A DNA stretch of 64,000 nt from assembly GCA_023623175.1 (NCBI GenBank), contig JAMNXU010000013.1:3933-67932 (forward strand). The letters run 5' to 3'. The DNA is from Bacillota bacterium. GTDB taxonomy: Bacteria > Bacillota > Clostridia > Acetivibrionales > JAMNXU01. Made by a program: the position numbers and the translations under genes. Shown one piece after another: positions 13,485 to 54,332 of the stretch (within the stretch, counting starts at the first letter, position 1; each line of letters opens with the position of its first letter). The notes below the pieces were generated by a model that worked only from the letters and a program-made list of their open reading frames with translations, did no database searches and was not told the DNA's origin.

Positions 13485-13505
13485 CAAAAAAAGACCTTCC
13501 GGTCT
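13485..13505 (-). terminator. Terminator-like hairpin of the purine riboswitch expression platform
   Basis: The minus strand reads AGACC-ggaa-GGTCT followed by TTTTTTT, directly 3' of the aptamer. The stem is short (5 GC-rich bp plus an A-U extension), so the call is tentative. Confidence 0.4.
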
Positions 13506-13510
13506 GTTTA

Positions 13511-13578
13511 TCTTGTAGTCTCTAAATTTACGGTTTAGAGGTAGAAACTGGCTTACCAATTAAAGCCATTATACAAGA
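13511..13578 (-). promoter_or_regulatory. Purine riboswitch aptamer (guanine/hypoxanthine type)
   Basis: Minus-strand RNA is UCUUGUA-UAAU-GGCUUUAAUUGGUAAGCC-AGUUUCUACC-UCUAAACCGUAAAUUUAGAG-ACUACAAGA. This gives P1/P2/P3 with the conserved J2/3 AGUUUCUACC, L3 CCGUAAAU, and a C at the specificity position in J3/1. Located upstream of purL-purF. Confidence 0.85.
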
Positions 13579-13641
13579 TTATTTATTTTTATTCAATTTA
13601 CTTTTACATAATAACATAAAGCACAACATCATGCAACCCAT

Positions 13642-29522: not shown

Positions 29523-29644
29523 GTGGCAGCGGAATGCGACGTATGCACCGCAAATCCCGGCATAACTGCTGCCATCCTGGGATTTTTCGTCCAGCGGCAA
29601 CTTCCCGTCCGACTGACACTTAACGCGCATACATCTACTCTGCC
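29523..29644 (-). promoter_or_regulatory. THF (tetrahydrofolate) riboswitch
   Basis: Minus-strand RNA is GGCAGAGUAGAUGUAUGCGCGUUAAGUGUCAGUCGGACGGGAAGUUGCCGCUGGACGAAAAAUCCC...GCGGUGCAUACGUCGCAUUCCGCUGCC. It matches the conserved GAGUAG..GCGUUAAGUG..GGGA..ACGA..GCGGUG..GCAUxCCGCU blocks of the folT motif and lies upstream of folT. Confidence 0.8.
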
Positions 29645-47941: not shown

Positions 47942-49369
47942 TTAAAACCTCAAATCCCGCTCGCCGTTGCGAATTCGCTGCAGATATTCAATTGCGCGCT
48001 GTCTCTGCCTTTCATTGGGAACATTCTGTATCTCGCTGTCTATAAGCCTGCGGCCCATTTCCAACAGTTCATCGTCGGCATAATCCTGCAGATATTCCTC
48101 AAAGGTCAAAAGCGCATTGGGCAGGCAGCAGTTTTTAATCTGCCCCGATTTGGCCAGAGCCATGAACCGGTCGCCCGTCCTGCCTTCCCTGTAACAGGCG
48201 GTGCAATAACTCGGAATGTACCCGTCCCTTACAAGGCTCTTGAGCACATCAATGGGCTTCCTGTGGTCAGCAAGGTAAAACTGGGGCTTTTCATCCACAT
48301 CTTCATCTTCAGCGTAACTTTTCTTTGCGTAACCGCCGACGCCCACGCAGGAACCGGCGCTCATCTGGGAAATGCCAATATCCAGCAGTTCATTGCGGAA
48401 CTCGACTCTTTCCCTCGTTGACAGGATCATTCCCGTATAAGGTACGGCAAGGCGGATGGTAGCCACCACCTTTTTGAAATCCCTGTCGTTGACGAGATAC
48501 GGGAAAGACGAATAATCCACACCCTCCGCCGGCAAGAGCCTCGGGATTGAAATCGTGTGCGGACCGACGCCGGCGACAGCCTCAAGATGCTCCGCGTGCA
48601 TCAGCAAGGCGACCACTTCGTAGTGGTAATCGTAAAGCCCGAACAGCGGACCGATCCCCACGTCGTCAATTCCTCCTCCCAGCATGGCCCTGTCCATGGC
48701 CTCGGTATGCCACTCGTAGTCAGCCTTTGGACCGGAATGCATCGCAAGGTATGTGGGCTTGTGATAGGTTTCCTGGAACAGGGTGTATGTGCCGATCTTG
48801 GCTTCCTTGAGCTTTCTGTAATTTTCCTCCGTGGTTGCCGCAATATCTATGTTAATTCTGCGAATCGAGCCGTTTTCAAACTTCTCGCTGTAAATGGTAT
48901 TTATGCACTCAAGAATGTATTCAATCGGGCAGTTTTGGTCGTCTTCGCCGGCTTCCAGCAGGAGCCTCTTATGCCCCATTCGCTCCAGCGCACGGACTTC
49001 TTCCCTCAACTCCTCCTGGGACAGCCGGTGTCTCGCAATCTTGTTTGAACACTTGTAACCGCAATATTTGCAGTTGTTCACGCAGTAATTCGAAAGATAC
49101 AGCGGGGCGAAAATGACGATCCTCTTTCCGTAAATTGCCTCCTTGACTTCTTTTGCGATTTTGAACATCAGCCCGAGAGTTTCGTCGTCGTCCACTTCCA
49201 GCAGGACCGCAGCTTCGCGGTGAGTGAGGCCCTTGTAATTTCTTGCCTTTTCCAGGATCCTGTAAACTTCCGCCTTGTTTTTAACGAGCTTTTTCGCCTC
49301 ACTTATTGATTCCAGCACCTCGCCGTCATCAATATACTCGTTGCAGTCCATGGATTTTACGTTATACAT
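47942..49369 (-). CDS. hydG: [FeFe]-hydrogenase maturase HydG (radical SAM tyrosine lyase)
   Basis: 475 aa. Radical-SAM motif CVNNCKYCGY, and the C-terminal auxiliary-cluster motif CTACYREGRTGDRFMALAKSGQIKNCCLPNA. Confidence 0.92.
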   Translation of the reverse strand: MYNVKSMDCNEYIDDGEVLESISEAKKLVKNKAEVYRILEKARNYKGLTHREAAVLLEVDDDETLGLMFKIAKEVKEAIYGKRIVIFAPLYLSNYCVNNCKYCGYKCSNKIARHRLSQEELREEVRALERMGHKRLLLEAGEDDQNCPIEYILECINTIYSEKFENGSIRRINIDIAATTEENYRKLKEAKIGTYTLFQETYHKPTYLAMHSGPKADYEWHTEAMDRAMLGGGIDDVGIGPLFGLYDYHYEVVALLMHAEHLEAVAGVGPHTISIPRLLPAEGVDYSSFPYLVNDRDFKKVVATIRLAVPYTGMILSTRERVEFRNELLDIGISQMSAGSCVGVGGYAKKSYAEDEDVDEKPQFYLADHRKPIDVLKSLVRDGYIPSYCTACYREGRTGDRFMALAKSGQIKNCCLPNALLTFEEYLQDYADDELLEMGRRLIDSEIQNVPNERQRQRAIEYLQRIRNGERDLRF

Positions 49370-49457
49370 TTTATTACCCCTTTCAAAAATAAATTTGATT
49401 GCAATTTAACAGAATAAATCCGTTTGTTCTTTTGAATAATTCAATACCGGTCACTAA

Positions 49458-49537
49458 GGCTGACTCCGATTATTTCAGGCTAATCCCGGTTATTTCAGGC
49501 TGATTCCGGTTATTCCAGCCCGAGTCCGGTTATTTCA
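49458..49537. repeat. Four 20-nt tandem units copying the hydF 3' end, stop codon included
   Basis: ggctgactccgattatttca / ggctaatcccggttatttca / ggctgattccggttattcca / gcccgagtccggttatttca, then ggctgatttt (coding). The fourth unit contains the real hydF stop (49530-49532). Confidence 0.85.
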
Positions 49538-50780
49538 GGCTGATTTTATCCAAAATGCCGGACAGGTAGGCAATCGCGACGCCGTAATTGGTCATTGGCA
49601 CTTTCTGCCTCGATGCCCTGTCTATTCGTGAAAGCATGTACCTGCGGTTAAACATGCACGCTCCGCAATGGATGATCAAATCATATGATGACAGGTCCTC
49701 GGGGAAATCATTGCCGCTCACCACGTCCACAGTAAGTCCCGGTCCTACCTTGCGGCGCAGCATGGCGGGAATCTTTTCCCTGCCTATGTCCTCGCTGAGC
49801 GGCGCATGGGTGCAGGCTTCAGCTATAAGAACCCGCGAATTTTCCGTAAGGCTTTCAATGGCAGCGGCGCTTTCCGCGTAGTAATCAATATCGCCCTTGT
49901 ATCCGGCATACAGCACCGAGAAGGATGTAAGCCTGCTTTCGGCGGGTTTCTTTTCATACACGGTTTTAAAAACCTGGGAGTCCGTTATTATGACTGCCGG
50001 CGGCTCTTTCAGCGCGCTCAATGCTTCGTCGATCTTTTCCGCCGTTGTGCATATCACCATGCATTTTCTGTCCAGCAACTCCCTGATCGTCTGGACCTGC
50101 GGAAGAATCAGCCTGCCCTTTGGCGCCTGTATGTCCTGGGGCATGACGAGCAACACGGTATCGCCGTCGCTGACCACATTGCCCGTTATTAACGGGTTCT
50201 CATAATCTTCGGGCAGGTTCTCCAGTATAGCCTTGTAAATCCGGGAAACGACATCCTTATCCCGCGCGCTGACCGCGACAGGTCTGATGCCCGTACCCTT
50301 CTCAACAAGATCCTGCGCTGCTTTTACTTCGCTTGAACCATTCAGCATGTCGCACTTGTTCAACACCGTGATTACGGGAATATTCATCCTTCTAAATTCG
50401 GCGATCCATTTTTTCTCAATATCGAAAACGGAACTCTCCATACCGGTATCAGGCTTATTGCTAACTGGAACCAGTTTGCTCCCGTCGAATACTACGAGCG
50501 CAACATCGGTTTTAAGCGCAGCTTCCCGCGTCTTTTTCATCCTGAGCCCGCCTATCTCGCCTTCATCATCAAACCCGGCCGTGTCAATGAGCACGCACGG
50601 TCCTATCGGATGGATTTCCATCGACTTGTACACGGGATCAGTGGTTGTGCCGGCAATATCAGAAACCAGCGCCGTTTCATGCCCGGTGATCGCGTTGATC
50701 AGCGAAGACTTCCCGCTGTTTCTTCTGCCGAAAATGCCTATGTGCAACCGGTTGCTCCTGGGTGTGTTATTCAGACTCAT
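49530..50780 (-). CDS. hydF: [FeFe]-hydrogenase maturation GTPase HydF
   Basis: P-loop GRRNSGKSS, TTDPV, and the C-terminal cluster motif CTHAP...HCGACMFNR. Confidence 0.92.
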   Translation of the reverse strand: MSLNNTPRSNRLHIGIFGRRNSGKSSLINAITGHETALVSDIAGTTTDPVYKSMEIHPIGPCVLIDTAGFDDEGEIGGLRMKKTREAALKTDVALVVFDGSKLVPVSNKPDTGMESSVFDIEKKWIAEFRRMNIPVITVLNKCDMLNGSSEVKAAQDLVEKGTGIRPVAVSARDKDVVSRIYKAILENLPEDYENPLITGNVVSDGDTVLLVMPQDIQAPKGRLILPQVQTIRELLDRKCMVICTTAEKIDEALSALKEPPAVIITDSQVFKTVYEKKPAESRLTSFSVLYAGYKGDIDYYAESAAAIESLTENSRVLIAEACTHAPLSEDIGREKIPAMLRRKVGPGLTVDVVSGNDFPEDLSSYDLIIHCGACMFNRRYMLSRIDRASRQKVPMTNYGVAIAYLSGILDKISLK

Positions 50781-51910
50781 TGTACCGCCTCCTTCACAGC
50801 CTTCTTTACAGGCTCCTGCACTGCTTCCTTCACAAAATCCCCGCGGTCCACCACGAGCTCATAGCCTATTCCCTTCATGCGGCTTTGCAGGCAATGGCGG
50901 CATTCTGCCGCTTCTTCGCCAGTACAGATCTTATTGTCATAGAGCGAGTACTTCTTCCTGACTCCCACGGGCGAAAGATTGGGCATTACCACGTTGGCGC
51001 CGGCCAATATTCCCAGTTCCCGGCCCCTGGGATGGACAGTGCCGAGGGCCGTCGTCGCCGGAATCAGGGCATTGGGCAGCATCAGCCGCAGGATTCCTAT
51101 GAGAAACAGCGTCATTTGGGCTTCGCCGGCCGGGAACGACGCAAAGGGCGTGTCATGATGCGGTATAAACGGGCCTATTCCGACCATCTCCGGCTCCAGT
51201 TCCTTTATAAACAACAGGTCCTCCACAATATTGTCAACGGTCTGCCAGGGCGATCCAACCATGAAGCCAGCACCTACCTGGTATCCGAGTTTTTTCAGGT
51301 CATACAGGCAGCGCCTACGGTTTTCATAACTCATTTCCCCGGGATGCAGCCTGTAATAGTGCTCCCTGTTTGCCGTTTCATGCCTCAGGAGATACCTGTC
51401 CGCTCCCGCTTCGCGGTATTTTTTATATTGCTCGTAGGTTCGCTCGCCGATAGAAAGCGTTATAGCGCAGTCGGGATACGAACGCCTTATTGAAGAAATT
51501 ATGTCAACAAGCATGTCATCGCTGTACCACGGGTCCTCGCCGCCCTGCAGGACGAAGGTCCTGAACCCGAGTTCGTATCCCCCGGCACAGCATTCCAATA
51601 TTTCATCCTTGCCCAGGCGGTAGCGTTCCGCGGCCGTGTTGCCTCTTCTTATGCCGCAGTAAAAACAGTTGTTTTTACAGTGGTTCGTAAATTCTATCAA
51701 ACCCCGCGTATAAATTCTTTTACCGAAAAACGAGTCCGCCACGGCCCTTGATTTAGAAAACAGGTACTGCGCGTCTTCGTCGGTGAAATCCGTCAGCAGC
51801 TCTGCAAACTCCCGGGCGTCCAGGCATCTTTCCCTGTGCAGTTTATCTATGAGACCGCGTTTGTCCGTTCCTGTGCACACTTTCTTCTTTCCTTTCAGGA
51901 TAGATTTCAT
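50777..51910 (-). CDS. hydE: [FeFe]-hydrogenase maturase HydE (radical SAM)
   Basis: CKNNCFYCGIRRGN radical-SAM motif and biotin-synthase-like fold motifs. 4-nt overlap with hydF. Confidence 0.9.
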   Translation of the reverse strand: MKSILKGKKKVCTGTDKRGLIDKLHRERCLDAREFAELLTDFTDEDAQYLFSKSRAVADSFFGKRIYTRGLIEFTNHCKNNCFYCGIRRGNTAAERYRLGKDEILECCAGGYELGFRTFVLQGGEDPWYSDDMLVDIISSIRRSYPDCAITLSIGERTYEQYKKYREAGADRYLLRHETANREHYYRLHPGEMSYENRRRCLYDLKKLGYQVGAGFMVGSPWQTVDNIVEDLLFIKELEPEMVGIGPFIPHHDTPFASFPAGEAQMTLFLIGILRLMLPNALIPATTALGTVHPRGRELGILAGANVVMPNLSPVGVRKKYSLYDNKICTGEEAAECRHCLQSRMKGIGYELVVDRGDFVKEAVQEPVKKAVKEAVQ

Positions 51911-51962
51911 GCTCTGTTTGTTTCACCTTTCCGAATAAATTTCATGCTCCATTTGTTTAAAC

Positions 51963-52220
51963 TCAATCATTGAAAAACATCCTGGAATAAACAGCCTTGG
52001 CCGACACGGCCGGAATCATTCCGAGCTTCCCCGATAATGCGCTGATTACGTCGTTGGGAGCGTCCATCACAATGCAGATTATGGATATACCCCGTTTGCG
52101 GTACGGTATTCCCATGCGTCCGATTATGTAATCCCGGTATTCATGAAGAGTGCTGTTCACCTTTTCCACGGAATCAGGATTTTCAACAATAATGCTGACA
52201 GCGGCAATTCTTGTTTCCAA
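51963..52220 (-). CDS. TM1266-family putative iron-only hydrogenase system regulator
   Basis: 85 aa, METRIAAVSIIVENPDSVEKVNSTLHEYRDYIIGRMGIPYRKRGISIICIVMDAPNDVISALSGKLG. This is the small ACT-like protein typically found with hydEFG. TTG start behind an AGGAGGTGA RBS. Confidence 0.8.
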   Translation of the reverse strand: METRIAAVSIIVENPDSVEKVNSTLHEYRDYIIGRMGIPYRKRGISIICIVMDAPNDVISALSGKLGMIPAVSAKAVYSRMFFND

Positions 52221-52471
52221 AAACCTTCACCTCCTAAAAAATCCGCTTCAACCGAAAAAATCTGCTTCAGCCAAAATTCCCTGTTCAACCAAAATTCCTT
52301 GGGCGAGTATTATTGAGCAAAATTCAATTACAAGGCAAAATTCCCGTGTCGGAATACTAAGCCTGAGGTCAAAACTAATGAGTCAAAACTCCCTCGTCAA
52401 AAATTACCGGATCAAAATAACTAAAGAAACAAAGTAAAATCCCCGGAACAAAATTCCGGTCTAAACCCCCG
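52221..52471. repeat. About 12 degenerate 14-22-nt repeats with core GGAATTTTG (minus strand)
   Basis: Minus strand: ccggaattttgttcc, gggattttactttg, agttattttgatcc, taatttttgacgag, agttttgactcatt, agttttgacctcag, gggaattttgccttg, ttgaattttgctc, aaggaattttggttgaac, agggaattttggctgaagc, agattttttcggttgaagc, ggattttttaggagg. The array starts at the terminator tail GGGGATTTTTGTTTTGG. Confidence 0.6.
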
Positions 52472-52510
52472 ACCAAAACAAAAATCCCCGCCCGGGGAAA
52501 AGGCAGGGAT
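52472..52510 (-). terminator. Intrinsic terminator-like hairpin inside the hyd operon leader
   Basis: Minus strand: ATCCCTGCC-ttttccccg-GGCGGGGAT (9 bp, one G-U pair), followed by TTTTTGTTTTGG. Confidence 0.6.
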
Positions 52511-52868
52511 TGTGTTATATGATAAACATAACTTAAATGCGGCAAGTTATCTTGTATACAGTGGGCTCCAACGGACTGCCCGCCTGCACAAGATGAGCTG
52601 TGGCACTTAACGGGCTTTTGTCATCAATTCGTCATTTAAGGTAAGAATTGATCTTTTAAATAACATTTGCCTTGCCCGTATACAACAATCCGCATTCAAA
52701 TTATGACAAGGACCATATCCTATAAACACTATATGCGCTTGCCTTCCCACTCGGGACGTACCCTTGTGAATCAGGGCAATTTCAGGTTTTCAATTTCGGG
52801 CTCGATGTAAGGCGCAGTCCCTTGCATCTTGCCCAAAGCAAATTCGTTAACTTTTTAACACTCTTTCC
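52511..52868 (-). ncRNA. Candidate structured leader / cis-regulatory RNA upstream of the regulator-hydEFG operon (class unknown)
   Basis: About 360 nt with no ORF of 60 aa or more on either strand. Bounded by a promoter-like element and the terminator. Nested long-range complementarity: 52536-52542 with 52690-52696, and 52552-52559 with 52678-52685. An 8-bp hairpin pairs 52623-52630 with 52645-52652. Confidence 0.35.
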
Positions 52869-52874
52869 TATAAA

Positions 52875-52903
52875 AGTATACTGCAGTCAGCGCAGTTTTT
52901 CAA
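52875..52903 (-). promoter_or_regulatory. Sigma-A-type promoter for the hyd leader
   Basis: Minus strand: TTGAAA, 17 nt, TATACT. Confidence 0.45.
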
Positions 52904-52959
52904 TACCTTTTGTTAAAAAATTGTCTATTTATTTTGGGATAATATTTTCTGAAAATTCC

Positions 52960-53317
52960 CTGTCCGGCCCTTAATTGATCTCTACATCTGTACTGTACTG
53001 TTCTGTTTTGTTTTTATTTGTTATTATCTGTTTTTATTTGTTATTATCTGTTTTTATTCAATTTGTTATCTTTCTTTTTTCTTTATCTATCCTCTTTTTC
53101 TTAATTTGTTATCTATCTTTTTTCTTTTCTTTATCTATTTCTTTTCCTTGACTATTTCTTTACTTTTTCTAATTCTTTTCTTTTTCTAATTCTCTTCTTT
53201 ATCTTTTCTTTTCTTTGACTATTTCTTCTCTTTACTATTTCTTTTCTTTTACTATTTCTTTTTCCATTTCTTTTCTTAATCCTTTTTTTACCTGTTTTTC
53301 TTCATTTATTTCTTTTT
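52960..53317. repeat. ~360-nt purine-rich (minus strand) low-complexity tract of degenerate repeats after the ntpD stop
   Basis: The minus strand continues the ntpD end (aagatgaagaaaagaaataaataa) as gaaataaatgaagaaaaacagg.., aagaaaagaaatggaaaaagaaatagtaaaagaaaagaaatagtaaagagaagaaatagtcaaagaaaag.. Stop codons occur in every frame. Confidence 0.75.
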
Positions 53318-53932
53318 TTATTTATTTCTTTTCTTCATCTTTTTGATCTTGAAAAAGTCCTCCCTTTCCTTTTCTTCGAGGACCTCCTCTATATATTTGA
53401 CTTGCTCCCTGTATCTCGGTATCAGTATATGCTGAAGCGCATTTGTTCTTTTACTTGTTTTTTCAATCTCCCGCGCCAGCTTAAAAATTGAATTTTCAAT
53501 TTCGGCCAGCTCATACAGTTTATACTTAACTTCGTTGAATTTCAGCCGCGCCTCATCCAGGGATGTATTGGTGTTGAAAAAGCCATAGGAAGGCTTTATT
53601 TCCTGCCTTTTATATTTAACCACGGGAATATCCACGCCCATGATGCTCTTTAACAGCACCTCGAAATTCTCATCATTGGGAATACTGTTGGTGATGTCGT
53701 CCACGTCCCTTATTCCCAGCGTGAGATTCGCTACCTGGAGCGCATTGTACGCTTCCTCGAATATCCCGTATATCTCATTTTGAATATTCTTCGCCCTGTC
53801 AACCATGTCCATCATTTCGCGGATGAGGACGTTCCTCTTTTTATCCAGGAGTTCATAGCCGCTCCTGGAAAGGGCAAGCGCGGTTTTGGCTTTTATAAGG
53901 TTGGCTTTTGTGGGCGCAGTCAGCTGAGACAT
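53318..53932 (-). CDS. ntpD: V-type ATPase subunit D
   Basis: 204 aa. MSQLTAPTKANLIKAKTALALSRSGYELLDKKRNVLIREMM is the canonical V/A-ATPase D N-terminus. Confidence 0.9.
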   Translation of the reverse strand: MSQLTAPTKANLIKAKTALALSRSGYELLDKKRNVLIREMMDMVDRAKNIQNEIYGIFEEAYNALQVANLTLGIRDVDDITNSIPNDENFEVLLKSIMGVDIPVVKYKRQEIKPSYGFFNTNTSLDEARLKFNEVKYKLYELAEIENSIFKLAREIEKTSKRTNALQHILIPRYREQVKYIEEVLEEKEREDFFKIKKMKKRNK

Positions 53933-54332
53933 TACTTATACACCTTGCTTCTGCAATTTGCTCAATTATACCTGTTCTTATATCTGTTTTATATTATCGT
54001 TTTATACAATTTTGATTTTATAAAATTTCTTTATGTTCATTTTTTATATAATCTGTTTTTCATATATAATCTGTTTTTCTTATATAATCTGCTTTTCTTT
54101 AAATAAACAATCTGCTTTTCCTCATATAATTCTTCATATAATTTGATTTTCTTTATATAATTCGCTTTTTTATATATTCTGCTTTTCTTTACATAATCCG
54201 TTTTTCTTGTTTTATATAATTTGTGTTTTTAGGGAGGCCGCTCTCTCCATATATTACATCATGTCCTGCACCATGGTTATATCCGTTTTTTGCATCTTTT
54301 TATCTTCATGTCTTGCATCGTGTTTTACCATT
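53933..54332. repeat. 400-nt untranslated spacer inside the V-ATPase operon, made of ~12 degenerate ~18-nt repeats
   Basis: Minus-strand units: aagaaaagcagaatatata, aaaaagcgaattatata, aagaaaatcaaattatatg, aggaaaagcagattgtttattta, aagaaaagcagattatata, agaaaaacagattatatat, gaaaaacagattatata. These resemble the ntpB end cagaagtattataaaggcaaacag. Confidence 0.75.

Follow-up and report, generated by a model that had tools for sequence, protein, structure and literature searches.

To our knowledge, essentially nothing beyond Rex is known of how the hydrogenase-maturation genes hydE, hydF and hydG are regulated. TM1266 carries the label 'putative iron-only hydrogenase system regulator'; its structure dates from 2006, its function has been unknown since, and we know of no target assigned to it in roughly 20 years as a putative regulator. 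For Rex, a clostridial operator consensus, TTGTTAANNNNTTAACAA, has been described, and the regulon table of C. thermocellum includes hydG, with a DNA affinity purification sequencing (DAP-seq) peak, and an adjacent TM1266-like gene with a predicted site (PMC8457756). Here we examine the leader of a TM1266-hydEFG operon in a 64-kb stretch of DNA from a Bacillota bacterium of the Acetivibrionales (contig JAMNXU010000013.1, positions 3,933 to 67,932), hereafter the window. Coordinates are those of the window and, for the leader and its operon, refer to the minus strand; related loci are cited by number.

The TM1266-hydEFG operon carries here, as its 5' leader, a genuine transcription-attenuation element that is apparently uncatalogued. 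An earlier note on this DNA, drawn from its letters, had proposed a novel riboswitch or attenuator here, and that proposal holds up: the core at 52783-52727 is conserved, with compensatory changes, terminators, an antiterminator and no Rfam family. The note had named absent conservation upstream of orthologous operons as the finding that would undo it; we found the opposite, in many Clostridia. It had suspected a ligand-sensing leader, which is one of two live readings; a protein-dependent attenuator is at least as likely because of the tight linkage to the TM1266 gene.

A conserved, covarying RNA followed by a terminator

The conserved part of the leader is a core of ~57 nucleotides (nt) at 52783-52727, a rod-like hairpin with two 2x2 purine internal loops and CUGA and GAAGGC flanks. 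We assembled 80 loci from a HydE search of one genome per GTDB species (62-75% identity) and listed 80 metagenome loci by a context-blind pattern scan of contigs. When the intergenic gap was compared with the 80 hydE loci by nhmmer and blastn, matches were confined to the stretch ~52790-52720 and always lay directly upstream of TM1266 or hydE. A covariance model of the core, R1, scores 66.6 bits (E = 2e-16) at 52727..52783, its sole match in the 64-kb window; we propose this core (copy B) as the sensor domain. At E <= 1, R1 matches 26 of the 80 GTDB loci, two of them marginally (L050, E = 0.024; L039, E = 0.13), every time on the gene strand and 100-500 nt upstream. It confirmed 65 of the 80 metagenome loci, one of which (L157, E = 0.008) we judged false.

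Leaders at the loci with these matches share one plan. A -10 box is followed by a TGTTAA-N4-TTAACA palindrome, a hairpin, the core (consensus AUYGURCUGA..CAYRAGGGUUCGUCCCGAGUG.GAAGGCRAGAGAAUAG), a variable hairpin and a terminator conserved in sequence (consensus CUAUCCUUGUGCC-loop-GGYRCAAGGAUUUUUU). In the window, P1 pairs UUGC (52779-52776) with GCAA (52742-52739), and CU (52774-73) pairs with AG (52744-43). GA then faces GA (52772-71 / 52746-45), P2a joins CAC (52768-66) to GUG (52750-48), a 2x2 loop sets AA (52765-64) opposite GA (52752-51), and P2b (GGG 52763-61 / CCC 52755-53) ends in the terminal loop UACGU. Because the CU/AG flanks pair and GA faces GA, the full unit would be one long rod with two tandem purine-purine loops, an arrangement we infer from which positions are invariant and from the way the copy-A flanks covary (GCU/AGC, ACU/AGU). 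Variation is found in the stems and terminal loops and hardly at all in CUGA, GAAGGC and the purine loops.

Covariation supports these helices. An alignment of 19 core sequences contains P1 (UYGY/GCRA), P2a (3-4 bp) and P2b (GGG/CCC), with a 2x2 RA/RA loop separating P2a from P2b. In it 95.8% of cells are paired, pair 6-46 is CG in 13 sequences and UA in 6 with zero exceptions, and the covariation score is 0.266 against 0.153 in shuffles, none of 500 shuffles scoring as high. Further R1 matches among the GTDB loci carry AGG/CCU, GGA/UCC or AGA/UCU at P2b and CCC/GGG or UCC/GGA at P2a. The R1-confirmed metagenome set has 97.1% of cells paired, 47 double-sided changes versus 7.3 in shuffles, and a covariation score of 0.293 versus 0.147 (0/500 shuffles as high); its pair 20-36 occurs as UA (20), CG (17), UG (11), AU (3) and GC (2). 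P2b is uninformative in this set because the search pattern fixed GGG/CCC. The core also holds a near-invariant U-G pair (UG in 53 of 56 metagenome sequences), which would be A-C on the opposite strand; the element is therefore an RNA of the gene strand.

The core is often not alone. Upstream of it in the window lies copy A (52798..52834; GGGC / AA / GAUGCAAGG-loop-CCUUACAUC / GA / GCCC); its hairpin, which formed in every fold, includes a conserved C-A mismatch and an internal loop of 2x2 purines. Copy-A homologues precede the core at many loci, with covarying stems (GCUG/CAGC, GUCG/CGAC, GUUG/CAAC, CCG/CGG). Most TM1266 genes without an R1 match carry a diverged unit upstream, with stems such as CGCC/GGCG, CACA/UGUG and AUA/UAU. 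From 34 units of both kinds, RNAalifold derived one consensus of three helices, in which 6 of the 7 pairs show compensatory changes. Since the upstream hairpin is itself such a unit, many leaders hold tandem units (for example L037, L050, L065, L058 and L062). Cultured bacteria with the leader include Desulfosporosinus hippei DSM 8344 (L037), Sporobacter termitidis DSM 10068 (L032) and C. thermocellum (Clo1313_1572).

An intrinsic terminator follows. In the window it occupies 52472..52511 (5' arm 52511-52501, loop 52500-52494, 3' arm 52493-52483, U-tract 52482-52472), close to where the earlier note had placed it (52510-52472); its stem, 52511-52483, has 11 pairs, 6 of them G-C, and a loop of 7, then TTTGTTTTGG. 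Terminator-like sites are enriched in the region, 9 against 2.2 +/- 1.6 expected. Among distinct family members, 76 of 80 have an intrinsic terminator behind the core, 7-213 nt away (median 37.5 nt), and the window's 213 nt is the longest distance in the family. A conserved terminator stands between promoter and open reading frame (ORF), and a co-varying, mutually exclusive pairing sequesters its arm.

That pairing involves the core tail, AAGGCGAGAGAAUAG, which is complementary to the terminator 5' arm, CUAUCCUUGUGCC. Native tail/arm duplexes average -10.6 kcal/mol, versus -7.2 when the tails are shuffled and -9.5 +/- 0.19 when they are matched with the arms of other members, none of 5000 such permutations being as low in a test that sequence relatedness inflates; a shorter tail segment gave a weak complementarity signal, with a median shuffle fraction of 0.17. 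Lineages with differing terminators have matching tails, as in L070, L120 and L116. The window's antiterminator 5' strand, GGGAAGGCA (52740..52748), overlaps the P1 3' strand and, by inspection, pairs with 52505-52497 in a helix of 9 pairs, 2 of them G-U. The antiterminator appears in nascent-transcript folds; in that of the window, with the terminator 3' arm still unmade, a GAAGG:CCUU(U) helix closes the insert that separates core and terminator.

Because GGCRA is also the P1 3' strand, the closed rod and the antiterminator are mutually exclusive. Among short canonical leaders, L007, L017 and L003 adopt the antiterminated form at their global energy minimum, with the 5' flank paired in addition to the 3' arm of the terminator, and L040, L035 and L009 adopt the terminator. 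The folds split between both forms, so the two states are near in energy, as a switch should be.

Gene order behind the motif centres on TM1266. Of 60 informative metagenome loci, 46 begin with it, and behind it stand hydE, hydG or hydF in varied order or, in four loci, an ATP-binding cassette (ABC) transporter; hydE comes first in 10 of the 60 and an ABC-transporter gene in 4. TM1266 is likewise first in 15 of 25 GTDB loci, the window itself left out, and it stays first whether hydE, hydG or the ABC transporter comes next. In hydE-first operons without a TM1266 gene in cis (L008-L010, L028, L056, L068, L082, L085, L093, L109, L117, L122, L094, L142), a Rex-like box mostly sits a few nt from the core (mostly 1-8 nt; 33-71 nt in L008-L010 and L068), which leaves no space for an upstream unit. 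In TM1266-first operons the tandem form is usual. The transporter comprises an NMT1/SsuA-like binding protein, an SsuC/TauC/NtrB-like permease and an ATPase; we observed the leader RNA before it, with TM1266 first or not, in L145, L146, L161, L087, L119, L151, L104 and L149.

A Rex-type operator, a probable attenuator and a candidate effector

Transcription of the leader would start at a sigma-70-type promoter (52903-52875) with a TTGAAA -35 box (52903-52898), a 17-nt spacer and a TATACT -10 box (52880-52875). This promoter, also picked out by the earlier note, matches 10 of 12 consensus positions and ranks top of the 6 promoter-like sites in 51500-54000, where such sites are not enriched (5.2 expected). 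Homologous loci place the -10 box identically relative to the operator and the RNA. The promoter's position predicts a transcription start near 52868. Between promoter and terminator we found no minus-strand ORF of >=60 amino acids (aa), as had been claimed, the longest being 47 aa (52607-52750) and 56 aa (52375-52545). The 411-nt leader folds at -134.5 kcal/mol versus -110 +/- 5 for shuffles (z = -4.87).

At the promoter lies an element that the earlier note overlooked: a Rex-type operator, TGTTAAAAAGTTAACG (52845..52860), at about +9 to +24 of the predicted transcript. It has one mismatch to TGTTAA-N4-TTAACA over 12 specified core positions. Of 81 distinct family members, 41 have the same palindrome, with up to 2 mismatches, in the 160 nt before the core, compared with 4% of shuffles; the bearers include L004, L006, L007, L016, L070 and L085, with the palindrome at or overlapping the promoter. 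Judged by its sequence, the inverted repeat qualifies as a predicted Rex operator.

We propose a two-layer switch in which TM1266 would be the RNA-binding attenuator of its own operon, a reading that we lean slightly towards over a small-molecule ligand and whose chance we put only just short of even. In the first layer, the Rex-type operator would tie initiation to the NADH/NAD+ balance. The second would be a transcription attenuator made of the conserved RNA, as one or two rod-like hairpin units laid out as CU / RA-RA / 3-5 bp / RA-RA / 3-4 bp / variable loop, with CUGA and RAAGG flanks. The 3' strand of the second unit (GAAGGCAAG...) has two possible partners: the 5' strand of the same unit (UUGC...CU), which would complete the rod, and the terminator 5' arm, which would give an antiterminator. 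A rod held closed would let the terminator form and stop transcription at about 52472 (OFF); an open rod would give the antiterminator and let RNA polymerase read into TM1266-hydEFG (ON). The factor closing the rod would be TM1266, the operon's first product, which would respond to a ligand, bind RNA and attenuate its own operon much as PyrR or HutP do. In response to some signal, the leader probably switches the hydrogenase-maturation genes off by premature termination.

Three observations favour TM1266 as that factor: the element and the TM1266 gene travel together before two unrelated operon types, the units come in tandem, and the RNA resembles a protein site in its helices, purine mismatches and variable loops. 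TM1266 has at least 7999 homologues at E <= 0.001, and among the best 120 of these it is always single-domain, with no domain fusion. Its predicted structure (predicted local distance difference test, pLDDT, 94.8) has a beta-alpha-beta-beta-alpha-beta fold. A Foldseek search with this model returned 2NZC first, then the NikR C-terminal regulatory domain (TM 0.78-0.80), then ACT domains, as well as weak ribosomal uS10 matches; these fold matches do not separate a protein effector from a riboswitch. On the modelled structure, TM1266 is a sensor-type fold without a DNA-binding domain. The 2NZC entry has 4 chains, and tandem RNA units would fit an oligomeric binder.

Several points weigh against this reading. 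Within the stretches examined, 24 motif-bearing loci have no TM1266, among them a related-looking pair, the hydE-first L015 and the ABC-first L146. We know of no NikR-C or ACT fold that binds RNA. The permutation test of tails and arms is inflated by sequence relatedness. In the window itself, the antiterminator must span a 214-nt insert and reaches -7.8 kcal/mol against the family mean of -10.6, and RNAfold favours another local hairpin in place of P2. ON and OFF are assigned from thermodynamic folds, and these conflict among loci.

The alternative that survives best, at somewhat under an even chance, is a true riboswitch. The rod unit or units would bind a small molecule or ion directly, closing P1 and causing termination. 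That ligand would have a connection both with H-cluster assembly and with the ABC transporter's substrate, and TM1266 would be a mere regulon member, such as a ligand-binding or chaperone protein. The 24 loci without TM1266 speak for it, as does the finding of a covarying structured domain before several non-homologous genes (TM1266, hydE, hydG, an ABC substrate-binding protein or permease). So do the contrast between nearly invariant CUGA, GAAGGC and purine loops and the variable remainder, and a terminator/antiterminator platform typical of Firmicute riboswitches. Rod-like riboswitches with conserved internal loops and tandem aptamers exist (xanthine/NMT1, tetrahydrofolate (THF)-II, guanidine-II, glycine). 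Yet beyond the tandem purine mismatches few unpaired nucleotides are conserved, and there is no conserved terminal loop or junction to serve as a pocket. Such a close tie to one small regulator-fold gene in two unrelated operon types would also be unusual for a riboswitch, the gene set points to no ligand, and it is hard to see why one OFF switch should govern both an importer and the machinery of cofactor assembly.

Control by Rex alone, at the DNA level, is very improbable. The hairpins would then be structural or stabilising elements of the 5' untranslated region (UTR) or a processing site, and the terminator a leaky constitutive attenuator without a sensor. In its favour, 41 of 81 instances keep the operator, the Rex regulon table of C. 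thermocellum has entries for hydG and a TM1266-like gene (PMC8457756), and minimum-free-energy folds often have hairpins and terminator together. A passive hairpin, however, would hold neither CUGA, GAAGGC and the purine loops invariant nor the core tail complementary to changing terminator sequences, and half of the instances have no Rex-like box under the criterion used. Least probable of all is an independent, trans-acting small RNA gene of ~400 nt at 52868-52472 that just happens to sit before the hyd operon. In its favour are the unit's own promoter, its strong terminator, its strong fold (z = -4.87) and the further 250 nt before the TM1266 start codon. Against it, relatives have only about 20-110 nt between terminator and start codon and no evident second promoter; the element is invariably oriented like the gene behind it; a species-specific insert makes up most of the 400 nt; and just one other promoter-like site, a weak one (9/12, 52338-52309), lies between terminator and TM1266.

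With TM1266 as the effector, the protein would be a new kind of attenuation protein, of NikR-C/ACT fold, that recognises tandem double-purine-loop rods and couples a ligand to termination in hydEFG and ABC-importer operons; alternatively, the RNA itself would sense a metabolite or metal of H-cluster biogenesis, as a new class of riboswitch. We advance this tentatively, at somewhat under an even chance. If true, either reading would expose the signal by which anaerobes decide on building the [FeFe]-hydrogenase cofactor, and RNA biology would gain either a new class of riboswitch or, for proteins of the ACT/NikR-C fold, a first RNA target. The gene associations suggest that the ABC transporter belongs to the hydrogenase-maturation regulon, and an SsuA/NMT1-type transporter behind the same RNA may be an overlooked supplier for H-cluster assembly. 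The leader before TM1266/hydEFG is a concrete and testable object, with an RNA of ~60 nt, a protein of 85 aa and a terminator as read-out. It is also a likely point of control over hydrogenase activity in the H2-producing Clostridia of biotechnology.

Insert, distal leader and flanking genes

Between core and terminator, where relatives have a variable hairpin of about 10 to >100 nt, the window carries a strongly folded hairpin insert of ~214 nt (52512..52725; -64.3 kcal/mol, z = -3.88). There is no second copy elsewhere in the window or in the other fetched loci except L001 and L002, which, at 100% identity, belong to the same organism; the insert is lineage-specific. An exact-sequence search with TM1266 likewise gave just two short contigs of this organism and so nothing to compare. 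An origin as a mobile element or miniature inverted-repeat transposable element (MITE) is unsupported: the insert has 16-nt inverted ends but no second copy in the window or any locus.

The earlier note had read nested long-range pairing here, and part of this stands. Its first pairing is real, formed by 16-nt arms (52527-52542 / 52690-52705) that are 88% complementary and pair in minimum-free-energy folds. Its second (52552-59 with 52678-85) is missing from the minimum-free-energy fold, in which these bases pair otherwise. The long-range pairing as a whole lies within the lineage-specific insert (52725-52512) and not in the conserved core. The GGCAAG and CUUGCC copies to which the note had pointed are present in the sequence. 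By eye, CCUUGUC...GGCAAGG within the insert (52706-52712 with 52667-52677), with a poor U-tract, resembles the family terminator sequence, and it may be a relic of an ancestral terminator.

Beyond the terminator, the distal 5' UTR (52221..52471, ~250 nt) is not significantly folded (z = +0.35), and this stretch is absent from the other loci. It contains weaker terminator-like hairpins (52459-52443 and 52354-52342), the weak promoter-like site already mentioned, the sole one between terminator and TM1266, and an AGGAGG Shine-Dalgarno sequence (52235-52230). Repeats resembling GGAAUUUUG cluster on one strand, the minus strand, at 52221-52487 and 52951-52959. All four exact copies of GGAATTTTG in the 64-kb window fall within 52272-52457; one-mismatch copies lie at 52318, 52384, 52479 and 52951, and the last copies form a 19-nt tandem array (52236-52294) reaching to just before the Shine-Dalgarno sequence. 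We weighed the GGAAUUUUG repeats as CsrA-type GGA sites or as copies of the terminator 3' end; the cluster is real, species-specific and unstructured.

Downstream, the TM1266-hydEFG operon (47942..52220) is the hydrogenase-maturation operon that the earlier note had read there. It begins with the TM1266-family gene (52220-51963, TTG start; TIGR03959, 117 bits), followed by hydE (51910-50777; TIGR03956, 590 bits), hydF (50780-49530; TIGR03918, 538 bits) and hydG (49369-47942; TIGR03955, 678 bits), every score above its NCBIfam cut-off. Genes for V-type ATPase subunits A, B and D, also on the minus strand, precede the leader; D ends at 53318, and the spacing from V-ATPase D to the TM1266 gene is 1097 nt. 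Degenerate tandem repeat arrays, purine-rich on the transcribed strand, lie behind the V-ATPase D gene and in the B-D spacer (52987-53344 and 53966-54208). The two are alike, with a 17-nt period and ~13 copies at 53121-53344 and an 18-nt period and ~9 copies at 54040-54208.

Comparison with known RNA families and regulators

The earlier note could match the leader to no known RNA family, and a search of Rfam 15 (4227 models, at gathering threshold and at E <= 10) agrees. At gathering threshold the window yields only a purine and a THF riboswitch and nothing at the hyd leader, and twelve homologous loci yield no matches. At E <= 10, region 52100-53400 returns terminator-like noise only (best, anti-hemB at 27.6 against a threshold of 49.5), and the L007 leader returns L10 leader at 20.1 (gathering 44) and PyrR at 16.3 (gathering 54). 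The purine riboswitch (13496-13596, minus strand, 80.7 bits) and the THF riboswitch (29525-29644, minus strand, 80 bits) are both well above gathering. We found no description of this leader RNA in the literature on TM1266 or on hydE/hydG leaders, nor in the main texts of Weinberg 2017, Stav 2019, Brewer 2021 and Narunsky 2024; an unnamed listing in the Weinberg 2017 supplements is possible. Glycine riboswitch kinship, considered for GAAGG-like strings and the H-protein link to maturation, was rejected, the glycine model being silent even at E <= 10.

Terminator riboswitches of Firmicutes, such as the purine and THF riboswitches in the window, share this layout: a covarying sensor whose 3' strand competes with a terminator through an antiterminator, standing before non-homologous genes that include a transporter. 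The hyd leader differs in having no Rfam match, in being a rod with two tandem purine-purine loops, often duplicated, and in being followed nearly always by one particular small regulator-fold gene. It resembles the PyrR/pyr, HutP/hut, TRAP/trp and ANTAR systems in its tandem hairpins, its terminator/antiterminator output and, at many but not all loci, a candidate regulator gene first behind the putative site; where both are present, element and gene move as a module before different operons. The NikR-C/ACT fold of TM1266 is, however, unrelated to PyrR, HutP, TRAP and ANTAR, and its RNA binding is putative. The RNA is also unlike a PyrR site (16 bits for the PyrR model against a gathering threshold of 54). 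ANTAR targets are recognised through conserved hexaloops, whereas the terminal loops of the hyd leader vary.

At the level of the motif, there is a likeness to tandem sheared G-A pairs and kink-turns, bound by L7Ae, YbxF and YlxQ and found in box C/D RNAs, which also set GA opposite GA in 2x2 loops beside a CUGA flank. The hyd unit differs in lacking a regular 3-nt bulge, in its common AA/GA and AA/AA variants and in its two loops per unit. We rejected a kink-turn or box C/D identity on geometry: the loops are symmetric 2x2, and the extra nucleotides number 0-3 and do not lie 5' of GA on the bulged strand. The TM1266 protein superposes on the C-terminal metal-binding tetramerisation domain of NikR (TM 0.78-0.80); unlike NikR, it has no ribbon-helix-helix DNA-binding domain. 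The NikR nickel site is His3Cys, and no cysteine is invariant in the TM1266 alignment. The clostridial Rex regulon accounts for the DNA layer only: TGTTAAAAAGTTAACG fits TTGTTAANNNNTTAACAA at the promoter, which explains neither the RNA structure nor the terminator. Set beside these systems, the leader uses a classical type of mechanism, termination against antitermination. What appears new is the family of RNA, its architecture of tandem double purine loops and the connection with hydrogenase maturation.

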